Sequence record: OL615013
Source: Shigella phage ChubbyThor
Length of the DNA: 64,000 nucleotides
Direction: 5' to 3' (one strand)
Shown: piece by piece, positions 38,173-45,736 of the stretch
How the letters are laid out: each line of letters begins with the position of its first letter
Position numbering within the stretch: position 1 is the stretch's first letter
Notes under the pieces: generated by a model
Databases searched by the model: none
What the model saw: only the letters and a program-made list of their open reading frames with translations
What the model was told of the DNA's origin: nothing
Position numbers and translations under genes: made by a program

Positions 38173-38403
38173 ATGTACAAGTTCAGAATTAACAGAGAAC
38201 GTAATTCGTTCAAGTTCAGAATTAACAGAGAACGTAATTCGTTCAAGTTCGGTGTAGTCGCTGGAGTTTGTTTGTTCCTGGCGCTCGAAAGCGTTGTCAG
38301 CCTGCTTACAACATCACAAATGCAGGTGACTCGTTACCTACTTGCCATTATATTTTCTGCTGTCGGTTTACTCTGCTCCTATTTGGGGTGTGTGAAGAAA
38401 TAA
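38173..38403 (+). CDS. small membrane protein containing an in-frame tandem duplication
   Basis: 76 aa; KFRINRERNSF encoded twice by exact 33-nt tandem repeat; C-terminal TM helix. Confidence 0.4.
   Translation: MYKFRINRERNSFKFRINRERNSFKFGVVAGVCLFLALESVVSLLTTSQMQVTRYLLAIIFSAVGLLCSYLGCVKK
38179..38250 (+). repeat. exact 33-bp tandem direct repeat (2.2 copies)
   Basis: aagttcagaattaacagagaacgtaattcgttc x2 followed by partial aagttc. Confidence 0.85.
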
Positions 38404-38430: not shown

Positions 38431-38934
38431 TTGAGAAACTACATCATGATGCTGTTAATGAGCGTTCCACAGAACAAGATGACCCCTGAAACAGAGGGTA
38501 AGAATCACTTCAACATCTACAGCCAGAGCCAAACGGAACTCGGGCGCTTCCTCTCGCATTTTGCCCATCATCCAGTGACTACCTATGAGCACGGCGTGTT
38601 CAACTCCATGGAAGGCTACTGGTATTGGCTAAAGTACAGGGATGACAACCTGCGCTTGCTCGACGGCTACGAAGCCAAGCAATATGGGCAGGGGTTGGCG
38701 GCCACTCGCATCGCTGTCCTTGATCCATCATCCGAAGAATTCAAGCGGGACATTCTGTTTGCCACCAGCATGAAACTCCAGACAATGCCCGACCTGCTGA
38801 AGATCAGATTGGCGTACAGTCGACTCCCTCTGATCCATGCATACGTTCGGAACGGGAAATATAGTTTTCAAAACTCTATGGACTATATCATTGCACACAT
38901 TAATCGTCTCCGCATACAAGGAACTCTGAAATGA
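38431..38934 (+). CDS. NADAR (YbiA/DUF1768)-like domain protein, candidate ADP-ribose N-glycosidase
   Basis: 167 aa; FNIYSQS...ELGRFLSHFAHHP...MEGYWYWLKY resembles NADAR signature (NFYS...G.FSNFA..P...SEHYFQAQKF) as recalled. Confidence 0.4.
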   Translation: MRNYIMMLLMSVPQNKMTPETEGKNHFNIYSQSQTELGRFLSHFAHHPVTTYEHGVFNSMEGYWYWLKYRDDNLRLLDGYEAKQYGQGLAATRIAVLDPSSEEFKRDILFATSMKLQTMPDLLKIRLAYSRLPLIHAYVRNGKYSFQNSMDYIIAHINRLRIQGTLK

Positions 38935-39515
38935 AATTTATACACACCATCGTCGGCACTTCCTATGATTGCACCGCACACGAGCCAAACCGCTCGCCCG
39001 TGTTTGTTCTGAACAAACTGGGTGAAGAGATCTGTGAACTGTCTGATGTGTTTCATGGTATCGGCACAGCGTCCGAACCGTTGAATGGTGAAGTTGCTGA
39101 CGTCATTATCTCTGCCATTGACCTCCTGTATGTTATGGATTTCAATGACCAACAACTGCATGGTTGCATGACCAAAGAAGAGTTGGTCGACTCGGTTCAG
39201 ACACGTTTGGGGTTGTGTGGTGATTGTTCTCCCGAATATCTTGAAGCAGATTGGTTCCGCATTATCGATCGTGAACCCCAGAAGCATCTGAACCTCATTC
39301 ACCATTACCATGGCCGGATCATCCGATTATGCAATCAGCCTTATCGTAGCCAAGACATTCTAGAGAGGCTCGTTGCTAATTTGATCAAACATGTCGCACG
39401 GATGGCTTGCGGTGAAGGTGCCTTGCACAGCGTGAATATGTTGAGTACCCACATCAAAGTAGAGCACGCCATTGAACACAAAGTTGAAAAGTGGCGCATT
39501 AAATTTGGCCTATGA
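38931..39515 (+). CDS. MazG-like nucleoside triphosphate pyrophosphohydrolase
   Basis: 194 aa; LGEEICELSDV ... EVADVIISAIDLL matches all-alpha NTP-PPase EExxE/D motifs. Confidence 0.45.
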   Translation: MKFIHTIVGTSYDCTAHEPNRSPVFVLNKLGEEICELSDVFHGIGTASEPLNGEVADVIISAIDLLYVMDFNDQQLHGCMTKEELVDSVQTRLGLCGDCSPEYLEADWFRIIDREPQKHLNLIHHYHGRIIRLCNQPYRSQDILERLVANLIKHVARMACGEGALHSVNMLSTHIKVEHAIEHKVEKWRIKFGL

Positions 39516-40342
39516 AATACAAAATAATTTTGGATGCTCTTATACAGAGAGCAAAACTTCGAGGTAGAATGGAAGGCGTTTATCAAGAACGCCACCACAT
39601 AATCCCTGTGTGTTTGGGTGGAACCAACCATTTTTCCAACCTTGTGTGGCTCACGCCAGAAGAACATTATGTTGTTCATCACCTGCTTTGGAGGATAACC
39701 CCGCTTAACCCCGGAGTGAGGAAAGCTTGGACTGGGATGAACAACATGTCTAGGAGCAACAAAGAATTTGGGGAATTCAGGAGAAATAATTCCACCAGAA
39801 TGAAAGAAGTGATGTCATCTGATGAACAAAAGGAACGTTGTCGTAAGCAATCCAAGAAAAACTCATTGAACCCAGAAGTGCAGAAGAAACGTGCGGGTAG
39901 CTTGAGAGGTTACACTTGGGATGACGAATCAAGGCGCAGGTTGTCAAAATCCAGGAAAGGGATACCACACTCCGAAGCACACAAAGCCAACCTTACCAAA
40001 TCAGTCACCGAACGGATGAGGCGACCAGAAGAAAGGGAGAGGTATTCTGCTATGTGGCGCCAGAACAATCCCATGAATAACATACAACCTTGGGAACACC
40101 CGACTGTCGTAAAGACGGGTAAATCCCGACAATGGCTCCTGGCTGGTGAATTCTTTGAATGGTGGTGTGGTAACGGTGAAGACAAAGTGAAGAACCGTTA
40201 TTGTTTAATGTTGAAAGAAACCGGGTTAAGCTCTGTGTGTTCTAAGGCCACAGCTCAAACTTGTATATCTAAATTTCAGAAAGGTTGGATACCAAAAGAA
40301 GATCCCGCCTGGTTGAAATTTTACGGAGATAATAATGGTTGA
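39512..40342 (+). CDS. HNH homing endonuclease (free-standing)
   Basis: 276 aa; ERHHIIPVCLGGTNHFSNLVWLTPEEHYVVHH HNH motif; AT-rich; paralogous to ORF 56926..57621; overlaps topo II start by 8 nt. Confidence 0.7.
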   Translation: MKYKIILDALIQRAKLRGRMEGVYQERHHIIPVCLGGTNHFSNLVWLTPEEHYVVHHLLWRITPLNPGVRKAWTGMNNMSRSNKEFGEFRRNNSTRMKEVMSSDEQKERCRKQSKKNSLNPEVQKKRAGSLRGYTWDDESRRRLSKSRKGIPHSEAHKANLTKSVTERMRRPEERERYSAMWRQNNPMNNIQPWEHPTVVKTGKSRQWLLAGEFFEWWCGNGEDKVKNRYCLMLKETGLSSVCSKATAQTCISKFQKGWIPKEDPAWLKFYGDNNG

Positions 40343-42236
40343 TGTAAACAGAAAATACAAAAAGCTCTCACACATCGAGCATATACTCCTTCGCCCAGAG
40401 CGCCATCTGGGGAGTATCCGTTCTTCTGTCGGGTTGGCTTGGGTATATGATCTCAGCAAAGACAAAGTTGTATTTAAAGACAATTTTGAATATAACCCCG
40501 CTCTTATCAAACAGTTTGATGAAATCATCACCAACTGCGTTGACCACAGCAAGACGCCTGAGGGTAAATCCCTGACGGAAATCACTGTCACGGTTTCCCC
40601 GATGAACGGTCAAATCATCGTTGCTGACAACGGGGGCATCCCTGTGGTCAAGCATGAATCTGGTATGTGGTTGCCAGAAATGCTATTTTCGGAATTGTTT
40701 GCGGGATCAAACTTCAACGACGATGACGAAGAGTACAACAACCAGAAGTCTGGTGGCCAGAACGGTGAAGGGGCTTCGCTCGTCAACGTGTTCTCAAAGT
40801 GGTTCCGTGTTGCTACCAGTGACGGCAAGAAGTCTTATGCCCAGCTGTTTGAAGACAACATGAGCAAGAAGTCTAATCCGGTCATCAGCAATACGCCGAA
40901 AGAGTTCGGCACCACCATCGCCTGGATCCCTGACTATGCTCGCCTGGGCGTCAAAGGGCTTGACCAGAACAACCTGCTGATGATCTATCGCCGCGCGTTT
41001 GAAGTGGCTGCGTGTAACCCGCGCCTGAAGGTTGTGTTGAACGGGAAGCAAATCCGGATTGACCGCTTTGGTCACTTCGTTGATTACTTCCATGCTGGTT
41101 CCGCTGTTGATGAATCTGGTGAATGGTCGGTTGCTGTAGCCCCTTCATCCGGTACGTTCATGCACGCATCATACGTGAACTCTATTGCCACCCACATCGG
41201 TGGTCCTCACGTTGATTATGTCGCCGACCAGATCGTGGCTGCGATTCGTCCTCAGCTGGTGAAGAAGTTCAAGACCGAGCTGAAACCTGCCATGATCAAG
41301 AACCACATGTCCTTGTTCATTGCCGCCGACATCAACAACCCGCGCTTTGACAGCCAGACCAAGGAGCGCATGACCACTCCTGTAAGCCAGTTCGGTACGT
41401 CGTACAAGCCGAGTGACAAACTCATCCGCAAGGCGCTTGAGTTCGTTATGGCTGGTCTGAGCAAAGAACTGGCTTCCCTGCGCAATGAGCAGGATGATGC
41501 TGAGTTTGAAAAGGCCAAGAAGGATATCAGCAAGCGGGATTATCGTGAGATTGAGAAGTATTACCCGGCGACCGCCCGTGGTGACCGCAGTGGTTGCTCC
41601 CTGTTGCTGACAGAGGGTGATAGCGCCTCCAACCCTATCCTGAACGCCCGTGACACCAAGAAGATCGGATTGTTCCCGCTTCGTGGTAAGTTCATCAACT
41701 GCCTGAACGCCCCGCGCACAAAGGTGATGAACAATGAAGAGTTCAAGAACCTGTGTACGATTCACGGCGGCGCAGTGCCAGGCCAGCCCCTTGACATCAG
41801 CCGCTACCCACAGACTGTTGTGGCTACCGATGCGGACGATGACGGCATTCACATCCGTGGGTTGTTGATCACCCTGTATTGCACCTACTGGCCGGAGTAC
41901 GTCCGTCAGGGCAGGCTGAAGCTGCTGCGTACCCCTTACATGCGCGTGTGGTGTGGTAAGGTGATGCATGAGTTCATGAACAACGCCGAGTATGAGGAGT
42001 TCCTGAAGACACCTGATGCCAAGAAGATCACGAAGAAGAAATATCTGAAAGGTCTGGGCGGTAACAGCACTGAAGACTTCAAACGTATTCTAAACAACCT
42101 GGATGCGTATACTACGACGGTCACGCTGGACGATGGCTATCAACAGTCACTGAAGAATGGCTTCGGTGATGAGGCCGCCGATTACCGCAAAACCTGGTTT
42201 AGCGATGTTTGCCTGTTTGAAACTGAGGATGAATAA
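40335..42236 (+). CDS. DNA topoisomerase II large subunit (T4 gp39/gp60-like, GyrB-type ATPase + TOPRIM), unsplit
   Basis: 633 aa; RFDSQTKER, TOPRIM LTEGDSAS, DADDDG, YLKGLG blocks matching T4 gp39 as recalled. Confidence 0.9.
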   Translation: MVDVNRKYKKLSHIEHILLRPERHLGSIRSSVGLAWVYDLSKDKVVFKDNFEYNPALIKQFDEIITNCVDHSKTPEGKSLTEITVTVSPMNGQIIVADNGGIPVVKHESGMWLPEMLFSELFAGSNFNDDDEEYNNQKSGGQNGEGASLVNVFSKWFRVATSDGKKSYAQLFEDNMSKKSNPVISNTPKEFGTTIAWIPDYARLGVKGLDQNNLLMIYRRAFEVAACNPRLKVVLNGKQIRIDRFGHFVDYFHAGSAVDESGEWSVAVAPSSGTFMHASYVNSIATHIGGPHVDYVADQIVAAIRPQLVKKFKTELKPAMIKNHMSLFIAADINNPRFDSQTKERMTTPVSQFGTSYKPSDKLIRKALEFVMAGLSKELASLRNEQDDAEFEKAKKDISKRDYREIEKYYPATARGDRSGCSLLLTEGDSASNPILNARDTKKIGLFPLRGKFINCLNAPRTKVMNNEEFKNLCTIHGGAVPGQPLDISRYPQTVVATDADDDGIHIRGLLITLYCTYWPEYVRQGRLKLLRTPYMRVWCGKVMHEFMNNAEYEEFLKTPDAKKITKKKYLKGLGGNSTEDFKRILNNLDAYTTTVTLDDGYQQSLKNGFGDEAADYRKTWFSDVCLFETEDE

Positions 42237-42237
42237 G

Positions 42238-43569
42238 ATGGTTGCCAAGAGCATTACTGTAACGGACTTTGTCAACACTGACCATAAGCAGTTTTCTGTG
42301 GTCAACAGCATCCGTCAAATCCCTCAGCTGATTGACAGCCTCAAGCCGAGCCAGCGCAAGATCCTCTTTGCTGCTCTTGAGTACAACAAGGAGGAGATCG
42401 TTGACCGCCTTGGTATGTTCGCCGCCGCCCGGACCAACTACAAGTCTGGTGGTGAGAACATGAGCGGCACTATCGTGAACATGGCTCAGGGGTTCCCAGG
42501 CACGAACAACATCCCGTACTTTGACCGCGACGGCCAGTTTGGTTCTATCATGGGGCGTGATGCTTCATCTGCCCGATACATATCCGTCGCTGTATCTGAT
42601 GTTATCCGCAAGATCTTCCGCAAGGAGGATGAGGGTATTTTAGAATACAATTACCTTGGTGAAGAAAGACTGGAGCCGAAGTTCTTCCTGCCCATCCTCC
42701 CCATGTTCCTGGTGAATGGGATCAATGGTATCGGCACCGGATATTCCACCGACACCCCGTGTCATTGCGTTAAGTCCGTGCTCAGTGCCCTGAGAGCGCT
42801 TCTCCGTGGCGAAGACCCGAAAGACTTAAAACCGTACTGGAACGGCTACAAAGGGGAGACAGGCTATACTGAGGAAGGAAGAGCATACAGTCGCGGCATC
42901 TTCCGTCGCGTCAATGCCACCACCCTGCATATCACCGAAGTCCCAGTGGGTTGGTTCGCCAAGACCTATGAGACCAAGGTGTTGCTGCCTCTGTACAAGG
43001 CTGGTATCCTGACCGAGTACGCCAACGACACGACCGAAGATGGCTGGGATATCACGGTTGTATTCAAGCGGGGTGAACTGTCCAAGCTGGATGATAATCA
43101 GGTTGAGCAGATGTTCAAGTTGTACTCTGCTAACAAGCCTGTTTGGACAGCATGGGATGAAGACGGGGTAATCCATCGTTATGCGGGTTGGCAGGATATG
43201 TTGCTACCGTTCTTCAATTATCGCCTGTCACGGTATGAAGACCGTCGCCAGTATCTGTTGAAGGACATGGCAGACAGGATCCGCAAGCTGGGTGACCGGG
43301 CGGTGTTCATTGAATGGGCGACGCGTGTTGATCTCCGCCAAAAGATTGACGTACTGAAGTCTCTGTTCATGCAGGACTACCCGGACTTTGGCGGTGATCT
43401 TGACGAGTTGTTCAAGATGCCGCTGTCATCCATCACCCTAGACGCCCGTGAGCGCCTACTCAAGCAGATTGAGAACCTTGAAGCACAGCACAAGGAATTA
43501 AGTAAGAAAGAGGACATCGATCTTTACACTGAAGACCTTGATGACCTTGAAAAGGCTCTTGGCCTATAA
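42238..43569 (+). CDS. DNA topoisomerase II medium subunit (T4 gp52-like, GyrA-type)
   Basis: ORF track 42157..43569; ATG at 42238 after GAGGATGAATAAG; 444 aa similar to gp52 length; adjacent to large subunit. Confidence 0.8.
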   Translation: MVAKSITVTDFVNTDHKQFSVVNSIRQIPQLIDSLKPSQRKILFAALEYNKEEIVDRLGMFAAARTNYKSGGENMSGTIVNMAQGFPGTNNIPYFDRDGQFGSIMGRDASSARYISVAVSDVIRKIFRKEDEGILEYNYLGEERLEPKFFLPILPMFLVNGINGIGTGYSTDTPCHCVKSVLSALRALLRGEDPKDLKPYWNGYKGETGYTEEGRAYSRGIFRRVNATTLHITEVPVGWFAKTYETKVLLPLYKAGILTEYANDTTEDGWDITVVFKRGELSKLDDNQVEQMFKLYSANKPVWTAWDEDGVIHRYAGWQDMLLPFFNYRLSRYEDRRQYLLKDMADRIRKLGDRAVFIEWATRVDLRQKIDVLKSLFMQDYPDFGGDLDELFKMPLSSITLDARERLLKQIENLEAQHKELSKKEDIDLYTEDLDDLEKALGL

Positions 43570-44901: not shown

Positions 44902-45140
44902 ACCAAGAATTTGAAAACCTGTTTGAGCGTTGCTTTGAGCCTGCGTCTGTTGCGGGTTACATGGACCGCCTCAGTAAAGAGATCATATCCCGTCTGGTGG
45001 CGAAGGGTATCCATGTTGGTACGCTCGTGCGCAACGGTGACAACTTCATCATACAGATGTCCGACTGTCGTCATCGTTCTGGCATCTTCTACGTTAAATG
45101 CATTGACAACAGCATTATTGAATGGAGACAGTACGCATGA
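44898..45140 (+). CDS. hypothetical small protein
   Basis: 80-aa ORF. Confidence 0.4.
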   Translation: MNQEFENLFERCFEPASVAGYMDRLSKEIISRLVAKGIHVGTLVRNGDNFIIQMSDCRHRSGIFYVKCIDNSIIEWRQYA

Positions 45141-45736
45141 CCACATATGTAATCCATGGTGGCGATCTACTGAAAGCCGCCTGCAGCTTTAATCTGATCG
45201 ACATCTTTGCCCATGGTGCCAACTGCTGGTCTACCATGGGCGCGGGTATTGCCCTGCACATCGGCAACAACTTCCCAGCCCTACGCGAAGTCGATGCGAA
45301 CGATCCTCGTGGTCCAGAGCAACGCCTGGGTGGCATGACCTATGCATTCGACCACAGCAAGGGCGTTTGGGGCGCGAACCTCTACACTCAGTTCTACCCA
45401 GGTCCGAATGCCCGCATGCCGTCTGTCATCAGTTCTGTTCAGACCCTGTTTGAGCAGGTTCACGAAATTGTGGAAGCAACGGATGAAGAAACCGTCTATG
45501 TCGGCCTGCCTGCTATCGGCTGTGGTATCGGCGGCCTGAATCTCTACAGCGTAGTACGCCATATTAACCGGATCGCTGAAAGCGTGTATGAAGAGACCCG
45601 CCGTCGTGTCGTCCCAGTCTTCTATATCAGGGAAGGAGACGGGTTCGATGATGATCTGATGGAACTTTCTCATCTGGACGCAGAAGGTATCATGATTGTC
45701 GAAGATGAGCAAGAAATCATCGACGAGGAGGCGTAA
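45137..45736 (+). CDS. macro-domain protein (ADP-ribose binding / hydrolase)
   Basis: ORF track 45122..45736; ATG 45137 overlaps upstream stop; GDLL...IDIFAHGANCWSTMGAGIALHI and VYVGLPAIGCGIGGLNL match the two conserved macro-domain glycine-rich loops. Confidence 0.65.
   Translation: MTTYVIHGGDLLKAACSFNLIDIFAHGANCWSTMGAGIALHIGNNFPALREVDANDPRGPEQRLGGMTYAFDHSKGVWGANLYTQFYPGPNARMPSVISSVQTLFEQVHEIVEATDEETVYVGLPAIGCGIGGLNLYSVVRHINRIAESVYEETRRRVVPVFYIREGDGFDDDLMELSHLDAEGIMIVEDEQEIIDEEA

Follow-up and report, generated by a model that had tools for sequence, protein, structure and literature searches.

A gene at 38446–38934 on the plus strand of a 64,000-nucleotide stretch of Shigella phage ChubbyThor DNA (sequence record OL615013; this whole stretch is the window to which all coordinates refer) encodes a 162-amino-acid protein that is almost certainly a highly diverged member of the NADAR superfamily. 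An initial annotation had called it a NADAR domain protein, and at the superfamily level this call was upheld by the predicted fold, a profile–profile match to the T4 protein AdfN, the catalytic Glu/Lys/His residues, an intermediate sequence, and domain fusions within the ADP-ribose (ADPr) network. The peptide blocks that had first suggested it, FNIYSQS, GRFLSHFAHHP and MEGYWYWLKY, are present as quoted in the translated open reading frame (ORF) at 38431–38934. This ORF has 167 codons if started at TTG 38431, and ATG 38449 is a further in-frame start. The start codon is most likely ATG 38446, because the orthologous coding sequence spans 489 nt in the annotated relatives LIMEstone1 (ORF010), CAU_YEP3 and vB_CECAV_050, and because the homologues align with the N-termini MLLL or MFLL; the TTG start was set aside on the same evidence. 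The stop codon is the TGA at 38932–38934. By its sequence, the phage classifies as an Agtrevirus (Ag3-like) of the Ackermannviridae: the protein shares 99% identity with one from Shigella phage Ag3, and the DNA around the gene matches LIMEstone-like and Agtrevirus genomes at 85–90% identity.

Domain models and plain sequence searches did not recognize the protein. A scan of the Pfam and NCBIfam hidden Markov models (HMMs) gave no match at E ≤ 10, and the Pfam NADAR model (PF08719; gathering score 35.1) found nothing at E ≤ 10 in 30 relatives or in the homologue from Escherichia phage Turkey5, while the positive control, E. coli YbiA, matched it at 1.5e-38. The Phage_30_3 model (PF08010; gathering score 36) likewise missed the protein and gave sub-threshold matches in just 2 of the 30 relatives (best E = 0.07). 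None of 48 homologues from a search of 5.8 billion proteins carried a precomputed Pfam domain; BLASTP against YbiA returned nothing; phmmer and profile searches of the PDB sequences returned only noise (an antibody chain, Rrp17); and among the PHROGs only families of unknown function were matched (phrog_652, in which the protein is placed, and phrog_11222). The Pfam search was the check that the initial annotation had proposed, and its negative outcome for the protein and its 30 relatives, taken alone, would have spoken against a NADAR. We read the PF08719 miss as a limit of the model's sensitivity rather than a sign of non-homology, because an ORF in a metagenome-assembled genome (MAG) of Ca. 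Scalindua rubra (L035 3941–4606, 221 amino acids) reaches both models, Phage_30_3 at 1.1e-6 and NADAR at 8.7e-4, although both matches are sub-threshold. BLASTP finds this ORF from the ChubbyThor protein at 1e-6 and from YbiA at 1.7e-4. It is a natural intermediate between the clade of the ChubbyThor protein (here the Ag3-type clade) and the canonical NADARs, and would be a useful bridge toward an improved family model.

A highly confident AlphaFold2 model of the protein, built from a 30-sequence alignment (predicted local distance difference test, pLDDT, 93.7; predicted template modelling score, pTM, 0.86), consists of five core helices between two small β-hairpins, followed by a C-terminal helix. 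A structure search with this model found three NADAR structures at Z > 9, and Foldseek returned the same three and nothing else notable. The same structures at the same Z level had led Johannesman et al. to call T4 gp30.3 (AdfN) a NADAR (PMC11257639). In a viral structure library, the members of the protein's own family were followed by about 20 matches to giant-virus and phage proteins that are named as NADARs. Profile comparison agreed: hhalign matched the family profile to the single AdfN sequence at P = 3.9e-5 and to the single YbiA sequence at P = 5.5e-5 with the motifs in register, and to a 41-sequence AdfN-family alignment at Prob 96.1% (E = 3.5e-9) over 139 columns, essentially the full length, as compared with Prob 0.1% for an unrelated macrodomain profile. 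When an AdfN-family HMM was run against all 548 ORFs of the window, the protein was the sole significant match (E = 2e-4 with filters off; next 0.9), and, with a permissive cut-off of E ≤ 10 in a small database, the same HMM reached 196 of 197 family proteins, the best near 2e-10.

The active site of characterized NADARs comprises a catalytic Glu (E88 in the E. coli C7 NADAR, E43 in PnNADAR, E36 in AdfN), a pyrophosphate-binding Lys seven residues further on (K95, K50 and K43, respectively) that is ‘largely conserved’ across the superfamily, and a third residue in the last strand, which is Glu in YbiA-type, Asp in DarT1-linked and His in phage gp30.3-type members (PMC11543638, PMC11125620). 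We located the counterparts by hhalign and counted residues in the family alignment (196 domains for conservation; 199 sequences for positions 63 and 82 and the loop Trp); all codons are on the plus strand. The N-terminal motif H21-x-N23-x-Y25-S26 ... G33-x-F-L-S37-[NH]38-F39 (38506–38565) is invariant or nearly so, and corresponds to ‘INFYS...GDFSNF’ of YbiA (residues 15–32) and ‘ALSNF’ of AdfN. Glu56 (GAA, 38611–38613; S-x-E-G-Y), the predicted catalytic Glu, occurs in 196/196 domains and falls in register with AdfN E36, YbiA E48, C7 E88 and PnNADAR E43; its role is assigned from published work (PMC11543638, PMC11257639). Lys63 (AAG, 38632–38634) occupies the +7 position of AdfN K43, C7 K95 and Pn K50. 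K78-x-x-G81-Q82 (38677–38691), in which K78 and G81 are each found in 191/196 domains, probably corresponds by its motif pattern to K75-x-x-G78-R79 of PnNADAR, with Gln at the Arg position; Pn K75 is equivalent to C7 K115, which is required for DarT1 rescue (PMC11543638). His131 (CAT, 38836–38838; L-P-L-x-H-Y-Y; 195/196) opens the C-terminal β-hairpin of the model and lines up with the His that is invariant in the AdfN-family ‘LKHSI’ motif. The description of the protein as YbiA-like therefore stands for the superfamily and is slightly off for the third catalytic residue, which is the His of the gp30.3 phage clade and not the Glu of the YbiA clade.

The protein thus carries an AdfN-type Glu/Lys/His triad within a pyrophosphate-binding periphery unlike that of the solved NADARs. 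Lys63 is present in 33 of the 196 domains, including those of ChubbyThor and its close Ackermannviridae relatives, and is Gly, Ser or Leu elsewhere; position 82 (38689–38691) is Arg or Lys in 145/199 sequences and Gln in 22, ChubbyThor among them. The two positions are anti-correlated, with a basic residue at 63 only in 27 sequences, at 82 only in 136, at both in 9 and at neither in 27. A loop Trp equivalent to W89 of YbiA and PnNADAR is found in 0/36 sequences with a basic residue 63 and in 69/163 of the rest. These counts are descriptive rather than a test, as the sequences are phylogenetically related, but they suggest that residues 63 and 82 may have been swapped as pyrophosphate-binding residues.

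The family is large. An exhaustive profile search returned 1,912 cluster representatives at E ≤ 1e-3 and 503 at E ≤ 1e-30, and tblastn located the gene in 575 phage records (by organism name, 197 Salmonella, 62 Klebsiella, 67 Escherichia and 19 Dickeya). Among the records listed are many genomes of Ackermannviridae size (~150–160 kb), ~157-kb Vibrio phages, Erwinia and Xanthomonas phages, E. coli jumbo phages, SPN3US and phiPMW. Nearly all of 45 records listed call the product a ‘hypothetical protein’, a few a ‘virion structural protein’, and only Escherichia phage Turkey5 (PQ471516; L014 2477–2959) a ‘NADAR domain-containing protein’. The Turkey5 protein clearly belongs to the family (HH 99.9%) and is likewise Pfam-negative, so a pipeline based on structure or on HH comparison presumably supplied its label; the case also shows how inconsistently the clade is annotated.

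Long family members are fused to Macro, SLOG/YpsA, DUF4326, DUF488-N3a, metallophosphoesterase or DUF1848 domains, and one carries a canonical Pfam NADAR domain. Macro, SLOG and DUF4326 are partners of viral NADAR domains according to Iyer et al. (PMC9503650). DUF488-N3a (PF22751, the ‘active DUF488-N3 subclade’) recurs both as a neighbour (L019, L025) and as a fusion partner (L023, P0189, P0174). P-loop genes of AAA_28, which we take to be the Pfam family that includes the NadR kinase domain, flank clade members at two loci (L020, L028), and Thg1 genes occur nearby at two (L025, L011). These neighbours suggest a conserved functional module. In phages, the stand-alone gene usually lies amid replication and nucleotide-metabolism genes, as it does here.

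One 205-amino-acid member (P0036; metagenome contigs L007 4509–6618 and L008) is encoded ~180 nt downstream of a WGR-PARP_reg-PARP gene on the same strand, apparently in a bacterial chromosome, and the two may form a pair of PARP writer and NADAR-like eraser. The pattern did not recur in 21 bacterial or MAG loci, leaving a single case; apart from this PARP neighbour, a Pfam scan found no adjacent ADP-ribosyltransferase (ART) gene in seven encoding-contig neighbourhoods or among 20 flanking or host ORFs (21 bacterial loci).

In ChubbyThor, the gene follows rIIA and rIIB, small ORFs, and genes for an Ig-domain structural protein, a histone-like protein and a small membrane protein, and it precedes those for a MazG-like pyrophosphatase, an HNH homing endonuclease and topoisomerase II. 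The MazG-like gene (38931–39515, plus strand; phrog_1247 MazG-like, 1.9e-35) is context rather than part of the enzyme. Its ATG overlaps the TGA of the NADAR-superfamily gene (ATGA, 38931–38934), the two are likely co-translated, and their order is kept in LIMEstone1, vB_CECAV_050 and CAU_YEP3. The HNH gene (39512–40342, plus strand) overlaps its neighbour at each end, the MazG-like gene on one side and the gene for the topoisomerase II large subunit on the other. A second HNH gene splits the two topoisomerase II genes of LIMEstone1; apparently there is none here, where ORFs 40335–42236 and 42157–43569 are contiguous, and the homing-endonuclease content differs among relatives. Upstream, a 33-nt tandem duplication (38175–38240, plus strand; two copies, 97% identical) yields two copies of a perfect 15-nt palindrome, GAACGTAATTCGTTC (38197–38211 and 38230–38244; chance expectation 0.13). 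The duplication and palindromes lie at the 5' end of the small membrane-protein ORF (38173–38403), which has 76 amino acids here and 65 as annotated in relatives. The repeat could be an operator-like element, an RNA element or a mere coding duplication.

Unlinked to these genes, the window also encodes a 204-amino-acid macrodomain protein of the DarG/TARG1 class (45122–45736, plus strand), which confirms the companion macrodomain of the initial annotation. Against the Pfam Macro model the protein itself is sub-threshold (E = 0.007), its homologues carry PF01661, and its AlphaFold2 model has a pLDDT of 95.6. The family profile matches 5m3i best (1.4e-16), then 5m31 (5e-16), both DarG macrodomain structures, and then TARG1/OARD1. 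The Thr-Lys of DarG, whose Lys is the catalytic Lys of DarG/TARG1, aligns with an invariant Thr89-Gln90 of the phage macrodomain family. Given Gln at this position, the suggestion that the phage carries two ADP-ribose-removing activities is plausible but unproven, and hydrolysis of thymidine-linked ADPr by the macrodomain protein should not be taken as given; it may counter DarT2-type toxins by a changed mechanism, or act on another substrate.

What would the NADAR-superfamily protein do? All NADARs assayed so far hydrolyse guanine-linked ADPr (G-ADPr) and none hydrolyses thymidine-linked ADPr (T-ADPr) (PMC11125620, PMC11257639, PMC11833690); some also remove cytidine-linked ADPr, and AdfN, NADAR-Bas32 and NADAR-Bas60 reverse the DarT1-type modification of phage DNA (PMC11257639). 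Because every assayed member acts on G-ADPr, we consider the ChubbyThor protein to be probably a base-ADPr glycohydrolase, and we lean, with less assurance, toward the complete model in which it reverses DarT1 modification of phage DNA as counter-defence. Made along with the replication and nucleotide-metabolism genes, the protein would bind the ADP-ribose moiety and cleave the N-glycosidic bond that joins ribose C1'' to the exocyclic N2 of a guanine base in single-stranded DNA, or possibly RNA. ADP-ribose placed on replicating phage DNA by a host DarT1-type toxin (DarTG1 system) would be stripped off and replication restored, so that the protein would serve as an orphan antitoxin. It might also be tuned to Ackermannviridae DNA, as AdfN works best on the modified DNA of its own phage; Ackermannviridae DNA carries hypermodified thymidines. 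Since NADARs do not act on the thymidine-ADPr made by DarT2, no effect on DarT2 is expected.

Several observations weigh against this model. The Pfam NADAR and Phage_30_3 models both miss the protein, and the pyrophosphate contacts of PnNADAR, R79 and W89, seem to be missing from the Ackermannviridae subclade (Q82, and no Trp in the loop 83–97), as is the D130/W133 loop of YbiA-type NADARs from the ChubbyThor protein. Most of the family also lacks the Glu+7 Lys that is essential in AdfN and the C7 NADAR, so the active site of the clade is evidently no simple copy, and its altered pyrophosphate pocket could have shifted the substrate. YbiA and T4 AdfN do not rescue uninfected cells from DarT1 toxicity (PMC11125620, PMC11257639), and in vitro activity on G-ADPr is no guarantee of anti-DarT1 function in vivo. 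That the hosts of this phage carry DarTG1 is an assumption, and for every member of the clade the reading rests on sequences and models. Finally, Iyer et al. took the SLOG, DUF4326 and Macro fusions to indicate soluble ADPr derivatives and not DNA adducts (PMC9503650).

Their argument favours a different proposal, in which the protein is a NADAR-fold hydrolase of a soluble NAD+/ADP-ribose derivative (an immune signal in the form of cyclic or linear ADPr, or a side product of RNA repair) that blunts NAD-based immunity or cleans up after tRNA repair. Metallophosphoesterase and YpsA fusions fit this idea as well, as do the neighbouring DUF488-N3a, AAA_28 P-loop, Thg1 and RNA ligase genes. Yet no NADAR is known to process a soluble signalling molecule, every member assayed, three unrelated phage NADARs among them, cleaves ADPr from the bases of nucleic acids, and two of these counter DarTG1 in vivo (PMC11257639); because the ChubbyThor protein is moreover a stand-alone domain within a DNA-replication gene block, we regard a soluble substrate as unlikely. 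A similarly low probability attaches to the idea that the Ag3-type clade is a NADAR branch with a function of its own, whose ADP-ribose pocket has been rebuilt and which has a substrate other than G-ADPr DNA and a new counter-defence specificity. It arises because most members lack the Lys essential in AdfN and DarG1 and have a basic residue in the K-x-x-G-R motif instead, while the Ackermannviridae show the reverse and no Trp. The substrate could then be ADPr linked to cytidine or adenine, ADPr solely on phage DNA that is hypermodified, a soluble ADPr-type immune signal or, as one member is paired with a bacterial PARP, PARP-type DNA adducts.

The genomic setting can also be read as that of a YbiA-like N-glycosidase acting on free nucleotides or biosynthetic intermediates, in pool sanitation or DNA hypermodification, in either case together with the translationally coupled MazG-like pyrophosphatase. 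The stop/start overlap with the MazG-like gene is kept across Ackermannviridae, the gene adjoins dCMP deaminase, ribonucleotide reductase or DNA polymerase genes in other phages, E. coli YbiA is annotated as an N-glycosidase, and NADARs have been cited for action on riboflavin-pathway intermediates (PMC9503650). Adjacency is weak evidence in tightly packed phage early regions, however, and the ADPr-network fusions would be left unexplained; with a third catalytic residue that is the His of the AdfN clade rather than the Glu of the YbiA clade, and with AdfN, a DNA ADP-ribosylglycohydrolase, as the nearest homologous family, we find such an activity improbable. Less probable still is an inactive NADAR-fold protein that binds ADP-ribose or DNA, is part of the virion or inhibits a host ART stoichiometrically. 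Some records label the orthologue a ‘virion structural protein’, the equivalents of the pyrophosphate-contacting Arg and Trp are absent in the subclade, and Iyer et al. suggested that some phage NADARs are packaged (PMC9503650). Against this, Glu56, His131 and roughly a dozen to twenty further positions are near-invariant in ~200 diverse sequences, as is typical of an enzyme active site, and no proteomic support was found for a virion role: in LIMEstone1 the mark of a confirmed structural protein is given to ORF006 and not to the orthologue ORF010.

If reversal of DarT1 modification is indeed the function, a DarT1-erasing strategy would extend to the Ackermannviridae and to many jumbo and Vibrio phages. 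Among the Ackermannviridae are the ViI/CBA120/LIMEstone-type phages that serve as biocontrol agents against Salmonella, E. coli O157, Klebsiella and Dickeya. The first descriptions of orphan NADARs with which phages remove DarT1 damage date from 2024 and concern T4-like phages and two other groups. We found no paper that links Ackermannviridae with NADAR or DarTG in a search that did not cover the NADAR list of Iyer et al. 2022; text matches to ‘Nadar’ alongside Ackermannviridae were off-topic, probably author surnames. What is new here is the presence of such a gene in the Ackermannviridae, the size of the unmodelled clade and the variation of its active site, which could help to explain the substrate specificity of NADARs. 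A testable function is assigned to a gene called ‘hypothetical’ in nearly all annotated records listed, and recognition of a large NADAR clade missed by current domain databases would correct estimates of how frequent ADP-ribose erasers are in phages.

Among known NADARs, the protein most resembles T4 AdfN (gp30.3; PF08010), which is also a small stand-alone phage protein (about 150–160 amino acids) with a NADAR fold and C-terminal helix, has the same Glu, Lys at +7 and His opening the C-terminal hairpin, and is encoded amid the DNA-metabolism genes of a large myovirus whose DNA is modified. The two differ in that they share ~20% identity over aligned columns, with the ChubbyThor protein below the PF08010 gathering threshold; it has an EGYWYWL helix (EGFLQxxK in AdfN), an HxNxYS N-terminal strand and LPLxHYY in place of LKHSI. 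The +7 Lys, moreover, is missing in most of the Ag3-type clade. E. coli YbiA (PDB 2b3w; PF08719) is more distant, at 15–16% identity and with no likeness at the BLASTP or Pfam level. Its Glu at the third catalytic position and its D130/W133 loop (ENDAYWGDG) both differ from the ChubbyThor protein, and it is encoded by a chromosomal bacterial gene between rhlE and dinG. The DarG1 (BC4488-clade) antitoxins, such as the E. coli C7 NADAR and the G. lovleyi NADAR (8bat), have Asp at the third position, an N-terminal extension and an adjacent DarT1. The ChubbyThor protein has none of these: it has His131, no extension within its 162 amino acids and no adjoining toxin, being flanked by the membrane-protein and MazG-like genes. 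The NADARs of Bas32 (Markadamsvirinae) and Bas60 (Vequintavirinae) are likewise phage-borne orphans, which counter DarTG1 (PMC11257639). Compared by description only, they could be picked up by DELTA-BLAST searches for conserved domains and group with NADARs of archaea or bacteria, unlike the Ag3-type clade, which is invisible to domain models and nearest to AdfN. As it fails the thresholds of both PF08010 and PF08719, the Ag3-type clade would best be filed as a sister of the AdfN (gp30.3) clade within the NADAR superfamily, outside both families as they are defined.
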